From: a virus
Lineage: Duplodnaviria > Heunggongvirae > Uroviricota > Caudoviricetes
Length of the DNA: 20,031 bases
Strand: one strand, 5' to 3'
IMG/VR virus record: IMGVR_UViG_2541047753_000005
Shown one piece after another: positions 2,961 to 17,730 of this stretch. Each line of letters starts with the position of its first letter. The stretch's first letter is position 1. Under the pieces are notes generated by a model that made no database searches, was not told where the DNA came from, and was given only the letters and a program-made list of their open reading frames with translations. The position numbers were made by a program, and so were the translations under genes.

Positions 2961-3794
2961 ATGAACATCGAAAAAAGCAGATTAATTTCTGAGGCCGCCC
3001 CTCATCTGAACGCCTCTCTGGGCACAATTAACGGTAATGAATTTGCCGCAATTGTCCCAGTTATTCCTGGTCACATCGGTGGGCGTGAAACCAATATTGT
3101 TAGCGCAAAAGCGTTACACAAAGCGTTGGGCGTGGGAAAAGACTTCTCTACATGGATCACTGATCGCATCTCTGAATATGACTTCACCATTGGGCACGAT
3201 TACTCAGTCCATAAAACAATTTCCCCAAATTTGGGGAAAAGCCCGAATGGCGCGGCTTACAGCAAGATTAAGCAGTCTGGCAGACCCGGCAAAGACTATC
3301 TGTTAAGTGTCGGAATGGCGAAAGAACTGGCAATGATCGAACGCAATGATCAGGGTCGCGCTATCCGTCGTTATTTCATCCAGTGCGAGGAAGAATTACA
3401 GCGTAGCGTGCCTGAAATCGCCGCCCGCTATCGTCGCCAGCTAAAAGCCCGTATCAGTGCCGCAAACAACTTTAAGCCAATGTGCGATGCGCTGAATATG
3501 GCCCGTGCCGAGCAGGGGAAAACGACGCAGCAACACCACTACACAAACGAGAGCAATATGATTTCTCGTATCGTTCTTGGAGGGCTAACTGCTAAGCAGT
3601 GGGCGCGGATAAATGGCTATTCTGGCGAACCTCGCGACCATATGAACGCAGAACAGCTTGAGCACCTCTCATATCTCGAAAGCACCAATATCACGTTAAT
3701 TGATATGGGCATGGAATATGAGCAGCGCAAAGGAGAACTCACCCGCCTGTCGCAACGCTGGCTCGCCAAGCGTCTGGAGGCGGTCCATGTTTAA
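2961..3794 (+). CDS. phage antirepressor-like protein (AntA-like N-terminal domain plus KilAC-like C-terminal domain)
   Basis: 277-aa ORF with GGAGA Shine-Dalgarno. N-terminal segment SAKALHKALGVGKDFSTWITDRISEYDF resembles AntA/Rha-type antirepressor domains; KDYLLSVGMAKELAMIERNDQGRAIRRYFIQCEEEL resembles KilAC domains. Assignment from memory. Confidence 0.65.
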   Translation: MNIEKSRLISEAAPHLNASLGTINGNEFAAIVPVIPGHIGGRETNIVSAKALHKALGVGKDFSTWITDRISEYDFTIGHDYSVHKTISPNLGKSPNGAAYSKIKQSGRPGKDYLLSVGMAKELAMIERNDQGRAIRRYFIQCEEELQRSVPEIAARYRRQLKARISAANNFKPMCDALNMARAEQGKTTQQHHYTNESNMISRIVLGGLTAKQWARINGYSGEPRDHMNAEQLEHLSYLESTNITLIDMGMEYEQRKGELTRLSQRWLAKRLEAVHV

Positions 3795-3969
3795 GCCGAC
3801 AGGAACACCACAACCTCAAAAACGCTACAAAGATGCCCACGGAGCACTCGTTACTGTCGAAAGCGTGTCTCACAACCGAGTGACGTTTTATCGCGACGGG
3901 TATCAATCGCCATGCGTACAACCGCTGGCGCGCTTCATGAAGGAGTTCGCGGAGGTTAACAAATGCTAA
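3787..3969 (+). CDS. small hypothetical protein (60 aa)
   Basis: ATG at 3787 is preceded by GGAGG at about 6 nt and overlaps the antirepressor stop (ATGTTTAA); its own stop overlaps the next ATG (ATGCTAA). Confidence 0.55.
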   Translation: MFKPTGTPQPQKRYKDAHGALVTVESVSHNRVTFYRDGYQSPCVQPLARFMKEFAEVNKC

Positions 3970-5030
3970 CCGTCCAGAAGAAGATATTTTCACTGGCTGG
4001 TATGTCGCCAAAATCCAGCAATATAACAGCAAAGTCTGGCATTAATACAGCAGATACAAGCAAAGTTTATCATTTTCTGGTGGTAGGAGCGGATGCCTTA
4101 ACTATGTCAGAAATTACGGTCGATAGTGTTAGCGTTGAGAAGGTCGGCGGCTGCGCCAGAGAATTTCTGGTCGTAGATGGCTTTCTCTGCTCGCGTAGTG
4201 ACTCCACAAAAACCTTCGTCCACACGCGCGACGTTAACGAAATGAGCGCGATGTATTGTGCATCTGGTGCTTCCAATAGTGAGTTTTCGGAGTCCATAAA
4301 AAAGAGCTTGCCGTTATGCGGCAACACGGTTTATGGTTATAAGGCACCTCATAAAACGGGTGCCGGGATTGGCGTCCTGGTAAATCGAATGGCGACATAT
4401 GACGCGCCGAGCGTCTTTTTTTATGTCGTAGGTCTGACTCACCCATTTTTTGGGCGTTGGTGTATAATCCAGCGCCTTTGTCAATCAATGGTGGCTCAGG
4501 CAGGGGCTTCTTCGGAAGCGCCGGTATCCATTCGAGCCGGTTACGCCAACCCTGTCTGGGCTACCACCAGCGAAATTGGCGTTTCCGGTGGTAGCGTTAC
4601 ATGCTATCGAATGGAGGCTGCCACATGCTGGCTACTACCCCTACCCAAAAACCGCAATTTATCTGGATTATCGCCGCAGTTCGCCGCGATTGCCCGACAA
4701 TTACCGCCAAAATTCATCATATTGCTGCCGAGTCTGAACGCGATGCTCGCCGTTCTCTGGTGCGCGATCACGTCTGCTTTTTTGCTGGTCGTATCCGCAT
4801 GGAGGTGGCACATGATTAAAACCTACGATGTGCATATGGATCCCCTCGAACGCACAAGCCAGATCATCACACTGACAGAAGTGATTAACGACATTCTGGT
4901 GAGCAACTCTCCCTCACGAGACGAAAGACTGAAGGCGTTACTCGCGATATTGGATCTCGCCGTTCGTGACGTTCATTTCCTGCTGGAAGGTGGCGAAATG
5001 CCAGGAAAAACGGGGGCAACCAATGAATAA
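3963..5030 (+). CDS. hypothetical protein; extent uncertain (may be a shorter 5' gene plus untranslated leader plus a separate 72-aa gene at 4813..5030)
   Basis: ATG at 3963 has GGAGG about 7 nt upstream and is coupled to the preceding gene, so a real gene starts here. A 355-codon open frame is very unlikely by chance at this base composition. However the central part is compositionally odd, contains an extended -10 (TGTATAAT, 4461-4468) and stable hairpins, and the in-frame ATG at 4813 has its own strong GGAGGTGG Shine-Dalgarno. Confidence 0.35.
4461..4468 (+). promoter_or_regulatory. candidate extended -10 promoter element (TGTATAAT) ahead of the small-gene/primase operon
   Basis: Perfect TGnTATAAT at 4461-4468 with no convincing -35; preceded by a short GC hairpin plus T7 run (4401-4422). 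Position is analogous to the early promoter driving the primase operon in P4-type elements. Confidence 0.35.
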
Positions 5031-9774: not shown

Positions 9775-9894
9775 GTTGGTTCAGTTGGTTCAGTTGGTTC
9801 AGTTGGTTCAATTTGTAAAGAGTATTGTTTTATAAGAATTTTATTCTTTTTATTGAACCAACACTGAACCAACAGCACGGTATTTTGAACCAAC
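9775..9894. repeat. iteron array / origin-like element, left copy
   Basis: Four tandem GTTGGTTCA units (9775-9810), an AT-rich spacer, then three inverted TGAACCAAC units at 9854, 9865 and 9886. Confidence 0.7.
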
Positions 9895-10213
9895 ACAATG
9901 TGACTGAATTGATGCGCACAACACCTGGCTGGCATCAGAGAGTGTTTTACGAGACTTTCGTAAAATCCTGTGTACAAGGGCGTGACGTTTTTGAAAGTGA
10001 GCACTACGAAATTTTCGTAGTTCAGAAAACAGCCCCTGAGAAGTTGTTATACCTGTTCAGCAAACCATCCGCATAGCTGATCGCGAATCAAATTACCAAT
10101 GGAGCCAGAAGCAAGGGCAGAACTGAAAAGCGCCTGCCGTGAAGAGTAATGCGACACCATAAATATAGTTTTTAGAGTCCATAAAAAACCTGTCAAAACC
10201 TGACACACAGAAC

Positions 10214-15197: not shown

Positions 15198-15674
15198 CTA
15201 ATTTTTGTTCTTTGCTCTCATCCACAGGTAAAGAAGGGCAAGAACAAGACAAAAAACAGAGAATAGATGACCTACCTCATATGGTGCGCCCAAAAAATTA
15301 GCTATTGATACGGGCAAAAAAGCTGAAGCGATCAAAATTGAAAGGCAAAAAATAAGCCCAGTAATATAGTTTATTAAATTCTTAAATGAGAAATGTTTTG
15401 CTTGATTTACGGTCTTAGCGAATGATCGCTTAACGACGGATAAAAGCAAATAGATGGCGACAGTTGCTAATGCCCCTTTCCACCAGTCTGGATATAGTTT
15501 TGCGACAATCAGACCAAGGAAAACCATGATGACAGCCTGAGCATTCACACCAACCCTCCCTTTAGCGTTGTTTAGAATGGCAATCATCATATATCCAAGA
15601 CATGGCATTTGGTACATAGCTTGGGTCGGGATTTCAAATCCGATCCCCGTTGATGGGGCCGTTACAGTGCGCAC
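15198..15674 (-). CDS. polytopic inner-membrane protein, candidate superinfection-exclusion protein (SieA-like by position)
   Basis: Convergent with the ejection operon and AT-rich. About four hydrophobic helices. The ORF-track start at 15674 is a GTG; an in-frame GTG preceded by GGGAGGG (protein then begins VNAQAVIMVF) is a more plausible start, so the 5' end is uncertain. P22 sieA occupies this position and orientation after gene 16. Confidence 0.5.
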   Translation of the reverse strand: MRTVTAPSTGIGFEIPTQAMYQMPCLGYMMIAILNNAKGRVGVNAQAVIMVFLGLIVAKLYPDWWKGALATVAIYLLLSVVKRSFAKTVNQAKHFSFKNLINYITGLIFCLSILIASAFLPVSIANFLGAPYEVGHLFSVFCLVLALLYLWMRAKNKN

Positions 15675-15766
15675 ATATCCGCTTTATGTGAAACAGGAAG
15701 ATTTTTCTGATATCACTGCCACAGCAAAACACCAATTTCGAGACAAGTACGCGTGCGAGGGGTATC

Positions 15767-15788
15767 AGTTGCAAAAAATTTTGCAACT
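15767..15788. promoter_or_regulatory. near-palindromic operator-like site
   Basis: AGTTGCAAAA-AA-TTTTGCAACT: 10-bp perfect inverted arms separated by 2 bp, in the gap between the membrane-protein gene and the second alpA gene. Confidence 0.4.
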
Positions 15789-16581
15789 ACGTCCGACCAG
15801 TATGCACACGATGGCGGGGGGATACCATAAAACTGTTCTCTACATGAGACAGAGTGGTGGTGATGTGTTGATTATCGGCGTATATGCGCACAGGACGCGC
15901 TATGACGATGTTTTATGCGGGTACACCAATCACATGTATCTGGTGTGATAAATCGCGTTACATGACCTCTCATGTTGTGCTGGTGGTTATCACGACGTTC
16001 TGAATCTGGCCTTTGCCTGGTATTTTGCGACAAGTACGCGCGCGTAGCATCGAAATAATCGGATGGCGTATGCTGCTGGTAATATGAAGACCGATAGCAT
16101 TAACCGAAAGGAGAAAGACTTCTCGATAACGGCAAGGGGGCTGAATTGCGAGGCGAGATTAAGCAACTGTCTTGAACGTAAAAATCATGGAGCAACATGA
16201 TGGTACGATTCATTCCATTCTTCGTTCTTTCTGAGCATTGCGTTCAGGCTTAGTCAAAATTAGTGTTGCGAGCGGACCTATTAGTAATTGTTGGTGCGAT
16301 GCGCCTGTTATGGATTGTTATGGTTGTGGCAGGCCTGATTAATATCCAGTATGACCACCAGCTATGAGAGGCCACCTCAGTGGTTCGCAGTTGCAGGTTT
16401 GCACTCAGGTTCGCAGGGTTTTGGCTACTTTCACGTGCGAACCTGCAGAATTGCAAAGGACAACTAAGTCCTCTGGCCAACTCCCGGTTTATGAGCGACA
16501 CAGTCCGCCTGGCGCATCGTTTTCGTCGAGTGCGCCCATCAGCTTGTCCATGGACTATCCACCACTCGATATTAAAGCTAA

Positions 16582-16767
16582 TCATTGGTTGCCAGCCCGC
16601 GAATCAAGTTTGTTCTGGATCCAAGCTTCAACCTCCTCAAGCGACCATCTAGCTGATCTACCAATTTTAACTGGCTGTGGAAACGTGCCCGTCTTAACCC
16701 ATGAGTAGATTGCCGTTTTCTTGAAGCCCGTTCTGAGCATGACTTCGCTTAATTTGATAAGGCGCAT
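16582..16767 (-). CDS. AlpA/Vis-family helix-turn-helix regulator, second copy
   Basis: 61-aa ORF on the minus strand; LSEVMLRTGFKKTAIYSWVKTGTFPQPVKIGRSARWSLEEVEAWI is a typical AlpA-family sequence; GAGGAG Shine-Dalgarno 5 nt upstream of the ATG. Confidence 0.75.
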   Translation of the reverse strand: MRLIKLSEVMLRTGFKKTAIYSWVKTGTFPQPVKIGRSARWSLEEVEAWIQNKLDSRAGNQ

Positions 16768-17019
16768 AGAGGCTCCTCTGCTTTAGATTAAGCATAGTGA
16801 CAATCTGGCTTTGGGCGGTATCCAAAAGCGAGGTATCCATGTTGGTATCCACCAAAACGCTGTTTACCAAAAAAGTTACCACCGGAACAGGACATTTTGA
16901 GCTGTAACTTAACACATAGCATATGGAGTTCACGCATAGACTTCACGCACAACGGCTCCGGCCAGTGAAGAATCACCCTGGCTGGCAATATAATGCCGAT
17001 CACCATCAGAGGGGAATCC

Positions 17020-17211
17020 ATGACACCACGAGAAATCGAGCTGCTGACCATTGCCAAGCTGGAGCATGACGGCCACCAGCTCAGCCCGGCAGAACTGCGG
17101 GAATTAAGGCGCCAGCTGGCAGAGGGCCCTGTAATAGCCAGGCGGTACCGCGAAATGATGACCAGCCACGCATATCGCTGGAGCAAACCAGCGCCGCTCC
17201 GTGCGCGGTGA
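17020..17211 (+). CDS. small hypothetical protein (63 aa)
   Basis: ATG at 17020 preceded by AGAGGGG; a TATAAT lies at 16989-16994. Divergent from the second alpA gene. The ORF-track start at 16993 overlaps the -10 and is less likely. Confidence 0.4.
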   Translation: MTPREIELLTIAKLEHDGHQLSPAELRELRRQLAEGPVIARRYREMMTSHAYRWSKPAPLRAR

Positions 17212-17285
17212 GCAGCACCTAACCAGCACTAGACAAGCCCTGTGCTGGTGGATGTCCCTCATAATTAGCGGTTTTTAAACGGCGT

Positions 17286-17406
17286 GTTGGTTCACGGCCT
17301 CTTTTTGTTGGTTCAAAAATGGGGTGTGTTGGTTCACATTTTGCGAATAATCCTTTTAAAAACAATACTCTTTACAAATTGAACCAACTGAACCAACTGA
17401 ACCAAC
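17286..17406. repeat. iteron array / origin-like element, right copy (reverse complement of the left copy)
   Basis: Three GTTGGTTCA units spaced 21 bp apart (17286, 17307, 17328), AT-rich spacer, three tandem TGAACCAAC units (17380-17406). 17359-17406 is an exact 48-bp inverted repeat of 9784-9831. Confidence 0.7.
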
Positions 17407-17442
17407 ACCTTTTTGCTTATCTATATAGTCTGAGAGGCAGAA

Positions 17443-17730
17443 ATGATAAGGGACAGGAAAGCTGAAGAGCTGGAGTTAAAAGGGCTATGCCGGAGAGCTG
17501 CCACACGATGGGCAGAAGTCATGACGCTGGCAGATGGCGATAAAGAACGTGAACATGCAGCAAACAGACGCTCTGAATGTATCCGTAGGGCGGCACGCCC
17601 ACCAGCAACTACAGACAGATTCGGAGACTTAAGACAGGCAGTTAAGCGAACGCATTCAGCTCTTGGTATGGATGAGGAAGCGAGAGGGTACTTCAGGCGT
17701 TATCGCGATAAAGATTGCCAGCTACGATAA
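17443..17730 (+). CDS. hypothetical protein (95 aa, Arg-rich)
   Basis: GAGAGG Shine-Dalgarno 5 nt upstream of ATG; begins just right of the iteron array; no recognised motif. Confidence 0.45.
   Translation: MIRDRKAEELELKGLCRRAATRWAEVMTLADGDKEREHAANRRSECIRRAARPPATTDRFGDLRQAVKRTHSALGMDEEARGYFRRYRDKDCQLR

Follow-up and report, generated by a model that had tools for sequence, protein, structure and literature searches.

Gene order of the island and position of the gap

The stretch of DNA analysed here (the window; 20,031 nucleotides (nt), IMG/VR record IMGVR_UViG_2541047753_000005) is filled by an island of about 19 kb lying between yicC and dinD, and our subject is a gap in the right part of that island, at 15588-16581, in which we found candidate packaging sequences. 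The first part of the island carries genes for an integrase, AlpA, an AntA/B antirepressor, an ash-family protein and a primase with TOPRIM-DUF927 architecture. After the primase come the DUF2824 gene and the ejection genes, namely P22_gp7, Inj_translocase (gp20-like) and a gp16-like gene; these are followed by a gene for a small membrane protein on the minus strand, the gap, a second AlpA gene (also on the minus strand) and PerC. The gene content, with its P22-like gp14/7/20/16 genes, includes no capsid, lysis or terminase genes. Positions 15623-17523 are 98.1% identical to the corresponding locus of Escherichia coli MP1. On the basis of its gene content and its 98% identity to EcCIMP1 DNA, the island is classed as an EcCIMP1-like phage-inducible chromosomal island (PICI).

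According to the report on EcCIMP1 of E. coli MP1 (Pick, Stadel and Raivio, ISME J 2025; PMC11773190), this element excises only upon induction of Kapi1 (vB_EcoP_Kapi1), a P22-like phage that is stated to be a non-generalised transducer, and is specifically transduced by it. The transfer is very inefficient, at about 4.8e3 particles per ml. The authors could identify neither terminase nor capsid genes in EcCIMP1 and give its packaging mechanism as unknown. These experiments on helper dependence concern EcCIMP1, not the copy in the window. The two belong to the same element family with the same gene order, and they share the non-coding block and the pac-like 17-mer described below as well as alpA_1 and PerC. 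On the other hand, the window copy differs in its site (yicC/dinD), in its ejection-gene alleles and in the gene at the sieA position. The accessible text of the EcCIMP1 paper does not mention this non-coding block, a packaging (pac) site or relics of terS, the gene for the small terminase subunit.

In P22, genes 14-7-20-16 are followed by sieA on the minus strand and next by mnt/arc/ant. The original prediction, made from the sequence alone, had placed the gap where P22 would carry mnt, arc and ant, and this framing is apt: the island shows the DUF2824 gene, the gp7-, gp20- and gp16-like genes, a minus-strand membrane protein and the gap in turn. The gap stands in the same place as the P22 immI region (sieA, mnt, arc, ant, sar), right after gene 16 and the minus-strand membrane-protein gene. 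Unlike immI, it has no homologues of mnt, arc or ant and no sar RNA, and the antirepressor of the island and its C4 and isrK RNAs are found elsewhere, at 2961-4571. The prediction that the gap holds no confident gene agrees with RefSeq, where a genome identical to the window has no annotated feature from 15588 to 16581.

A conserved non-coding block between two swap sites

The left part of the gap belongs to a conserved non-coding backbone block of EcCIMP1-like PICIs (15545..16053), with variable cargo on both sides. About 545 of 5426 complete E. coli genomes (about 10%) carry the block at 93-100% identity, and it is kept even where identity in the neighbouring ejection genes drops to about 72%, where these genes have been replaced, or where the genes on either side differ. 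Across 18 distinct sequences of the block, 42 sites in its 509 nt are variable. The breakpoints fall at 15485-15634 on the left and at 16053, 16089, 16109 or 16136 on the right. The cargo to the right of 16053 differs between islands, being an Abi family protein, ImmA/IrrE with a partner, or alpA_1; to the left, the protein at the sieA position retains its first ~14 codons and has its body swapped among relatives. The locus is one conserved block flanked by two swap sites.

The block also contains joints of its own. A segment of 54 nt (15754..15807), lying between copies 1 and 2 of a direct repeat described below, is present or absent depending on lineage: it is absent from the related sequences L024 and L025 and from proteins P0003 and P0004, and the junction falls inside the repeats, which double as recombination joints. 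Two proteins from related contigs, P0029 and P0039, represent deletion derivatives of the island whose ends lie inside the block. In these fusions the N-terminus of the DUF4222 gene or of the gp20-like Inj_translocase gene is joined directly to the block, and large internal deletions of the island tend to end there. The idea that the left part of the block descends from a DUF4222 gene was rejected, for P0029 is a deletion fusion of the island's own DUF4222 gene and not an ancestor.

Two exact-pattern scans of species-representative genomes returned no relatives in other species. Copies do exist in Salmonella; they are nearly identical and allow no deep comparative test. No intact terS gene was found at the position of the gap in the relatives.

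A P22-type pac-like site in a relic of gp3

The pac site of P22 lies within its terS gene. It has a 12-bp consensus, AAGATTTATCTG, and a 17-nt pattern has been published for efficient pseudo-pac sites (PMC10996546). Ten experimentally supported pac or pac-like sites of P22 type have been listed, and pac-like sites in the host, such as those of purF and minE, were found to raise plasmid transduction almost 10,000-fold (PMC11260489). A sequence of this type, AAGATTTTTCTGATATC, lies on the plus strand of the block at 15698..15714, with 11 of the 12 consensus positions and 16 of the 17 positions of the pseudo-pac pattern. We built a weight matrix from the ten supported sites, and under this matrix the sequence scores 20.8 bits, the best value on either strand of the whole 20-kb window (p = 5.4e-8 per position; 0.002 expected per window). 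In leave-one-out scoring, half of the reference sites (five of ten) fall below this value. As positive controls, independent gp3 genes were scanned, and the matrix located the expected pac position (nt 269) in those of Louie (25.2 bits) and Emek (23.0 bits).

The coding context points in the same direction. The translation across the site, QEDFSDIT, resembles P22 gp3 at the codons that contain pac (the P22 sequence used for this comparison was confirmed to be present in terS genes), and FSDIT is identical to gp3 of phage Emek. Residues 28-57 of the plus-strand open reading frame (ORF) that runs through the site align with gp3 residues 77-106 without a gap and in the same register for four gp3 variants, a score that is reached by 5-14 of 5000 shuffles. 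A profile hidden Markov model of gp3 gives 8.2 bits, compared with 4.9 for the best of 3000 shuffles, and aligns ORF residues 29-56 to gp3 residues 78-105, with the pac-like site at the codons for E-D/G-L/F-S-E/D. We take the region 15648..15757 (plus strand), about 110 nt centred on the pac-like site, as a relic of the middle of a P22 gp3-type terS gene. It corresponds to about gp3 codons 75-110, where P22 has its pac. The 17-mer of the window thus shares with P22 pac and the Salmonella pac-like sites the 16/17 fit to the functional consensus, a gp3-like coding context and the register. It differs from P22 pac in lying in a gene fragment of about 110 nt on a satellite and not in a working terS gene, and it has a T at position 14, which occurs in none of the ten reference sites.

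The pac-like site falls within 15674-15740 (67 nt), the block's longest stretch without variation. This stretch is identical in 521 of 536 E. coli records (97%), compared with 398 of 528 (75%) for a well-conserved control stretch of the same length.

The matrix also picked up weaker sequences. The second and third matches in the window, AAGGTTTTTGTGGAGTC (18.6 bits) and ATGGTTTTTGTGGAGTC (15.7 bits), lie on the minus strand at 4200 and 12865; they are near-identical 17-mers inside coding regions and have a G at position 10 that is found in no reference site. The best match of Kapi1, ATGGCTATTCTGACATC (18.2 bits; L037 32624-32640), lies just after the gp16-like gene, the same relative position as the block has in the island, which may be a coincidence.

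Further terS relics and direct repeats

A 16-bp direct repeat at 15742-15757 and 16029-16044 had been noticed earlier. The repeat is real and extends to 23 nt at 87% identity. A diverged third copy, GACCAGTATGCACACG, lies on the plus strand at 15795..15810, at the right junction of the 54-nt indel. The pattern GACMAGTAYGCRYRCG has three matches where none is expected by chance, though it was derived after the copies had been seen.

The repeat copies form part of sequences that resemble the terS gene of the helper. Kapi1, the verified helper of EcCIMP1, has an Sf6-type TerS, and nt 172-189 of its terS gene read TTTCGCGACAAGTACGCG, which encodes FRDKYA and occurs once in Kapi1. The first copy of this 18-mer in the window, TTTCGAGACAAGTACGCG (15736..15753, plus strand), contains direct-repeat copy 1 and matches 17 of 18 positions of Kapi1 terS nt 172-189 and of Sf6 gene 1 nt 166-183. 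The second, TTTTGCGACAAGTACGCG (16023..16040, plus strand), contains direct-repeat copy 2 and also matches Kapi1 terS at 17 of 18 positions, with an exact run of 14/14; it is changed in just one of the 18 distinct block sequences. A match of 17/18 was reached in only one of 300 dinucleotide shuffles of the gap. At the MP1 locus there are three copies, two with 17/18 and one with 16/18, all on the plus strand. The third MP1 copy, TTTCGGGACAAGTACGCG at L036 4528-4545, lies just downstream of PerC, where the window has no copy. The pac site of Sf6 has reportedly been placed in the stretch of gene 1 coding for the DNA-binding domain.

A third type of terS is represented to the right of the block. 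By blastn, 16058-16170 (plus strand) matches the 5' ends of annotated terS genes with E = 1e-8; the translated alignment gives z = 9.3, and a second frame gives z = 4.4. The segment is a frame-shifted relic of the N-terminal part of a terS gene of the ES18/CobraSix/Lbo type, and a 36-amino-acid (aa) ORF of the relatives has been named 'phage terminase small sub...' by JGI. A working terS gene of ES18/CobraSix type was considered and rejected: there are only about 110 nt of the N-terminal coding part, with a frameshift, and there is no terL. Adjoining it on the minus strand, 16162..16256 is a relic of the 3' end of an IS110-family insertion sequence (IS), which retains the final 20 codons with the stop codon and a short tail. 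IS110-family copies in about 2400 E. coli genomes match it at 94-96% identity, and its minus strand reads LNAMLRKNEEWNESYHHVAP*, the C-terminus of the L002 transposase. Since only the 3' end is present, and not the transposase gene with both ends, a complete IS110-family element was rejected as well.

The original prediction had described the region as regulatory, possibly with a degraded toxin-antitoxin or immunity locus. Decayed sequence is indeed what lies here; its proposed origin is not supported. The decayed material traces to packaging genes, in the form of three types of terS fragment, and to an IS110-family end; it does not stem from an immunity or toxin-antitoxin locus.

A possible packaging region

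We tentatively propose that the gap is the pac region of an EcCIMP1-like PICI, built from fragments of helper-phage terS genes, because a satellite without a terminase gene is packaged specifically, because the block is conserved between variable sites, and because the pac-like stretch is the most invariant part of the block. In our judgement this proposal, the best supported of those considered, falls a little short of evenly balanced. Under this proposal, induction of a P22-like helper would be followed by excision and replication of the island. The helper TerS would then recognise a block sequence that mimics the pac inside its own terS gene, TerL would cut nearby, and headful packaging would proceed in the plus direction, towards alpA_1 and PerC, and would continue round the island in its circularised or concatemeric form. 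The candidate elements lie on the same strand: the gp3-type pac site at 15698-15714, two to three 18-mers of Sf6/Kapi1 type, and then the ES18-type fragment. That TerS binds these sequences and that packaging starts there is what we infer from the sequence. The plus-strand ORF, the IS110 fragment and probably also the 54-nt palindrome segment would be by-products without a required function.

Several points weigh against this proposal. The TerS of Kapi1 is of Sf6 type and not of P22 type, and therefore the P22-type site cannot explain the published transfer by Kapi1. As for the 18-mer, it may lie outside the Sf6 pac, and its copy 1 varies between lineages. The pac match was spotted by eye ahead of testing, and a score as high as 20.8 bits is expected about 0.5 times per 5-Mb genome by chance. 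Beyond the 17-mer, similarity to gene 3 at the DNA level is marginal (Smith-Waterman p about 0.02-0.04). The invariance of the site is weak evidence given the low divergence of the block, in which a 67-nt run has a probability of roughly 0.1 under a uniform model by our own estimate. Moreover, the ES18-type relic is cut at differing points in different lineages, as expected for junk. Each of the homology signals is modest.

Such observations bring in a second explanation, which we consider quite possible, if on balance doubtful: the fragments could be inert debris between cargo hotspots, left by recombination with P22-like and ES18-like phages and by an IS110-family insertion and its partial deletion. 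The block would then be conserved merely since the family is young and since it serves as a homology anchor for cargo exchange, and the pac-like site would be a fossil that has not yet decayed. The frameshifts, the 54-nt indel, the variable right truncations of the ES18-type relic and the IS end fragment fit this explanation well, as does the modest size of each homology signal taken alone. So do the deletion derivatives P0029 and P0039, which end inside the block, and the identity of the block (93-97%), which is similar to that of other backbone segments. Debris does not readily account, however, for a pac-like site that is closer to the functional consensus than half of the validated host sites (leave-one-out) and that lies in the most invariant stretch of the block. 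Nor does it account for the clustering of fragments from three terS types, two of which keep the segment expected to hold the recognition sequences, or for several copies of the helper's 18-mer in one orientation. In addition, the island is known to be packaged specifically and has no other recognised packaging determinant.

If the gap is a pac region, the block might further be a multi-specificity packaging cassette, with recognition sequences from at least two, perhaps three TerS types (P22 gp3, Sf6/Kapi1 gp1 and ES18 gp1). We consider this extension unlikely, though worth stating.

The inverted repeat and the regulatory alternative

An operator-like inverted repeat, AGTTGCAAAA-AA-TTTTGCAACT, had been described at 15767-15788, and we recovered it as described: a perfect 10-2-10 palindrome, AGTTGCAAAAAATTTTGCAACT, whose 10-nt arms show 100% complementarity. 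There is no other copy in the window, and only 0.01 matches are expected in shuffled sequence even when three mismatches are allowed. Across lineages the centre reads AA or TT or has lost one base, while the arms never vary; mutation driven by a hairpin fits this pattern as well as constraint does. The palindrome lies in the 54-nt segment that is missing from L024 and L025 and is dispensable in at least some islands.

The palindrome is one argument for reading the gap as regulatory, that is, as the promoter and leader of the minus-strand gene at the sieA position, and perhaps of the cargo on the right, with the palindrome as the operator of a dimeric repressor. It is perfect, improbable by chance and invariant in its arms though its centre varies. 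Furthermore, the minus-strand gene is conserved over its first ~14 codons and in its upstream sequence while its body is swapped, and in P22 the sieA promoter lies directly upstream of sieA. Several observations nevertheless make this reading improbable. A consensus scan of both strands of 15588-16581 found no promoter-like site. The palindrome occurs just once in the element, about 180 nt upstream of the start codon of the minus-strand gene, and L024 and L025 lack it but retain the flanking genes. The covariance models of Rfam 15 matched nothing in 15588-16581, either at the gathering threshold or at E <= 5, and the folding z-scores are just -1.9 and -2.1, so a structured RNA in the gap was rejected.

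Open reading frames of the gap

The plus-strand frame 15568..15948 reads 126 aa from a TTG and 123 aa from the ATG at 15577 (15577..15948). A pattern reminiscent of RelE/ParE-type toxins had been seen in its C-terminal half. This resemblance did not hold up: sequence searches of Pfam, NCBIfam, PHROGs, PADLOC and PDB gave no match. A phmmer search of 1.84 billion representative proteins returned variable-length fragments of the same locus together with three multi-stretch matches to much longer proteins, and tblastn against 50,697 phage records found nothing. The AlphaFold2 model (mean predicted local distance difference test score (pLDDT) 41.5, predicted template modelling score (pTM) 0.24) is too poor for a fold claim or a fold search. 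No antitoxin partner turned up, as no neighbouring ORF matches any family. A similarity to the P22 HExxH ORF between sieA and mnt (phrog_1365), suspected by eye from 'VLHVIGVF', was rejected (BLASTP E = 2.1; no PHROG match).

The frame itself is poorly kept. Among the 16 distinct block sequences that cover its start, nine break it, mostly by a 1-nt difference in a G run of variable length (15816..15821, plus strand) and otherwise by other indels. The run sets the frame of the ORF, and most lineages have one G fewer, which gives the ORF end ...TIKLFST*. The ORF is intact only in the clade of the window and in L024 and L025, where the loss of the 54 nt is in frame. Its variable sites fall 12/8/11 on codon positions 1/2/3 and show no coding signature. 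We also agree with the earlier remark that the frame has no credible start; none is conserved. The same ORF appears as hypothetical protein WP_001444474.1 in some RefSeq genomes (L008 2938-3309) and is unannotated in identical sequence elsewhere.

Could the ORF still encode a genuine small protein, be it a RelE/ParE-like toxin (decayed or orphan) or some other accessory protein? It is open over 123 aa in the clade of the window and annotated by RefSeq in some genomes, its C-terminal part is well conserved, and beta strands appear in that part of the AlphaFold2 model. Set against this are the broken frame in most lineages, the missing codon-position bias, the lack of any homologue beyond the locus save the three multi-stretch matches, the lack of a family or PDB match and of an antitoxin gene, the low pLDDT, and a start that overlaps the divergent minus-strand gene. 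We consider such a protein highly improbable; the toxin interpretation fails, and the ORF is probably no gene at all. The annotation calls for caution in that the hypothetical protein of some RefSeq records is most likely not a gene.

A 53-aa ORF on the minus strand (15872-16033) had been put forward as a putative regulator. This suggestion found no backing: the ORF has no family match, starts with TTG, is frame-broken in L014, and has variable sites spread 6/3/3 over the codon positions.

Other features of the island

The small membrane protein at the sieA position (15198..15587, minus strand) is swapped among relatives and placed by its synteny with P22. Homology to SieA was rejected, as BLASTP and tblastn against phages found none, and the relationship is positional only. 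The second AlpA-family gene (16582..16767, minus strand; Pfam Phage_AlpA, E = 1.9e-13) is the alpA_1 of EcCIMP1, which is reported at the same end and in the same orientation in the EcCIMP1 paper (PMC11773190). Between the IS110 relic and this gene, 16257..16581 is a spacer inherited with alpA_1; its ORFs have no family match, and it is confined to the 153 genomes with the same alpA arrangement. Downstream of alpA_1, at 16382-16447, lies a cluster of direct and inverted repeats of GGTTCGCA and TGCGAACC, whose minus strand folds with -30.1 kcal/mol (z = -2.6). The cluster could be a terminator-like or protein-binding structure.

Elsewhere in the island, Rfam matches above the gathering score were found for the int-alpA RNA (1269-1335), isrK (4344-4421) and the C4 antisense RNA (4484-4571). 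The isrK and C4 matches fall within the annotated ash-family gene and suggest that the antirepressor module is under antisense control of the c4 type, like that of P1/P7. Just 3' of the primase, 9784-9897 (~115 nt) is an inverted copy, at 76-79% identity, of the PerC upstream region (about 17285-17420) in relatives, namely L004, L008, L009, L021 and others. This sequence may be a shared regulatory or replication-related site.

Comparison with other satellites and implications

Satellites that carry a packaging signal of their helper include P4 with the cos of P2, the cos-carrying PICIs SaPIbov5 and EcCICFT073, and the Staphylococcus aureus pathogenicity islands (SaPIs) with a pac in their own terS. 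The proposed block would follow the same logic, in which a satellite presents a DNA signal that a terminase recognises. Unlike those satellites, the island in the window has no identified intact terS gene, Rpp-like redirecting protein or cos site, and what it offers as candidate signals are remnants of helper terS genes that seem to represent more than one TerS type. The element family itself is already known; a candidate pac region of terS relics in EcCIMP1-like islands did not appear in the literature we searched. We know of no described Gram-negative satellite that uses a captured fragment of a helper terS as its pac, and none appeared in that literature.

If confirmed, the finding would provide such a case: a Gram-negative satellite in which a captured helper terS fragment serves as the pac site. 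Islands of the EcCIMP1 type are present in about a tenth of complete E. coli genomes, among them O111 and other pathogenic lineages. Their content includes PerC-family regulators and exchangeable cargo, for instance Abi and ImmA/IrrE genes. The only experimental study of the family established specific helper-dependent transfer and left the recognition of the DNA unexplained (PMC11773190). The 17-nt site and the 18-mer repeat make this recognition in packaging experimentally addressable. Should the block prove to be a cassette of several specificities, a single PICI family could be packaged by P22-like helpers of differing packaging specificity, and satellites would widen their helper range by capturing small pac-bearing pieces of terS.

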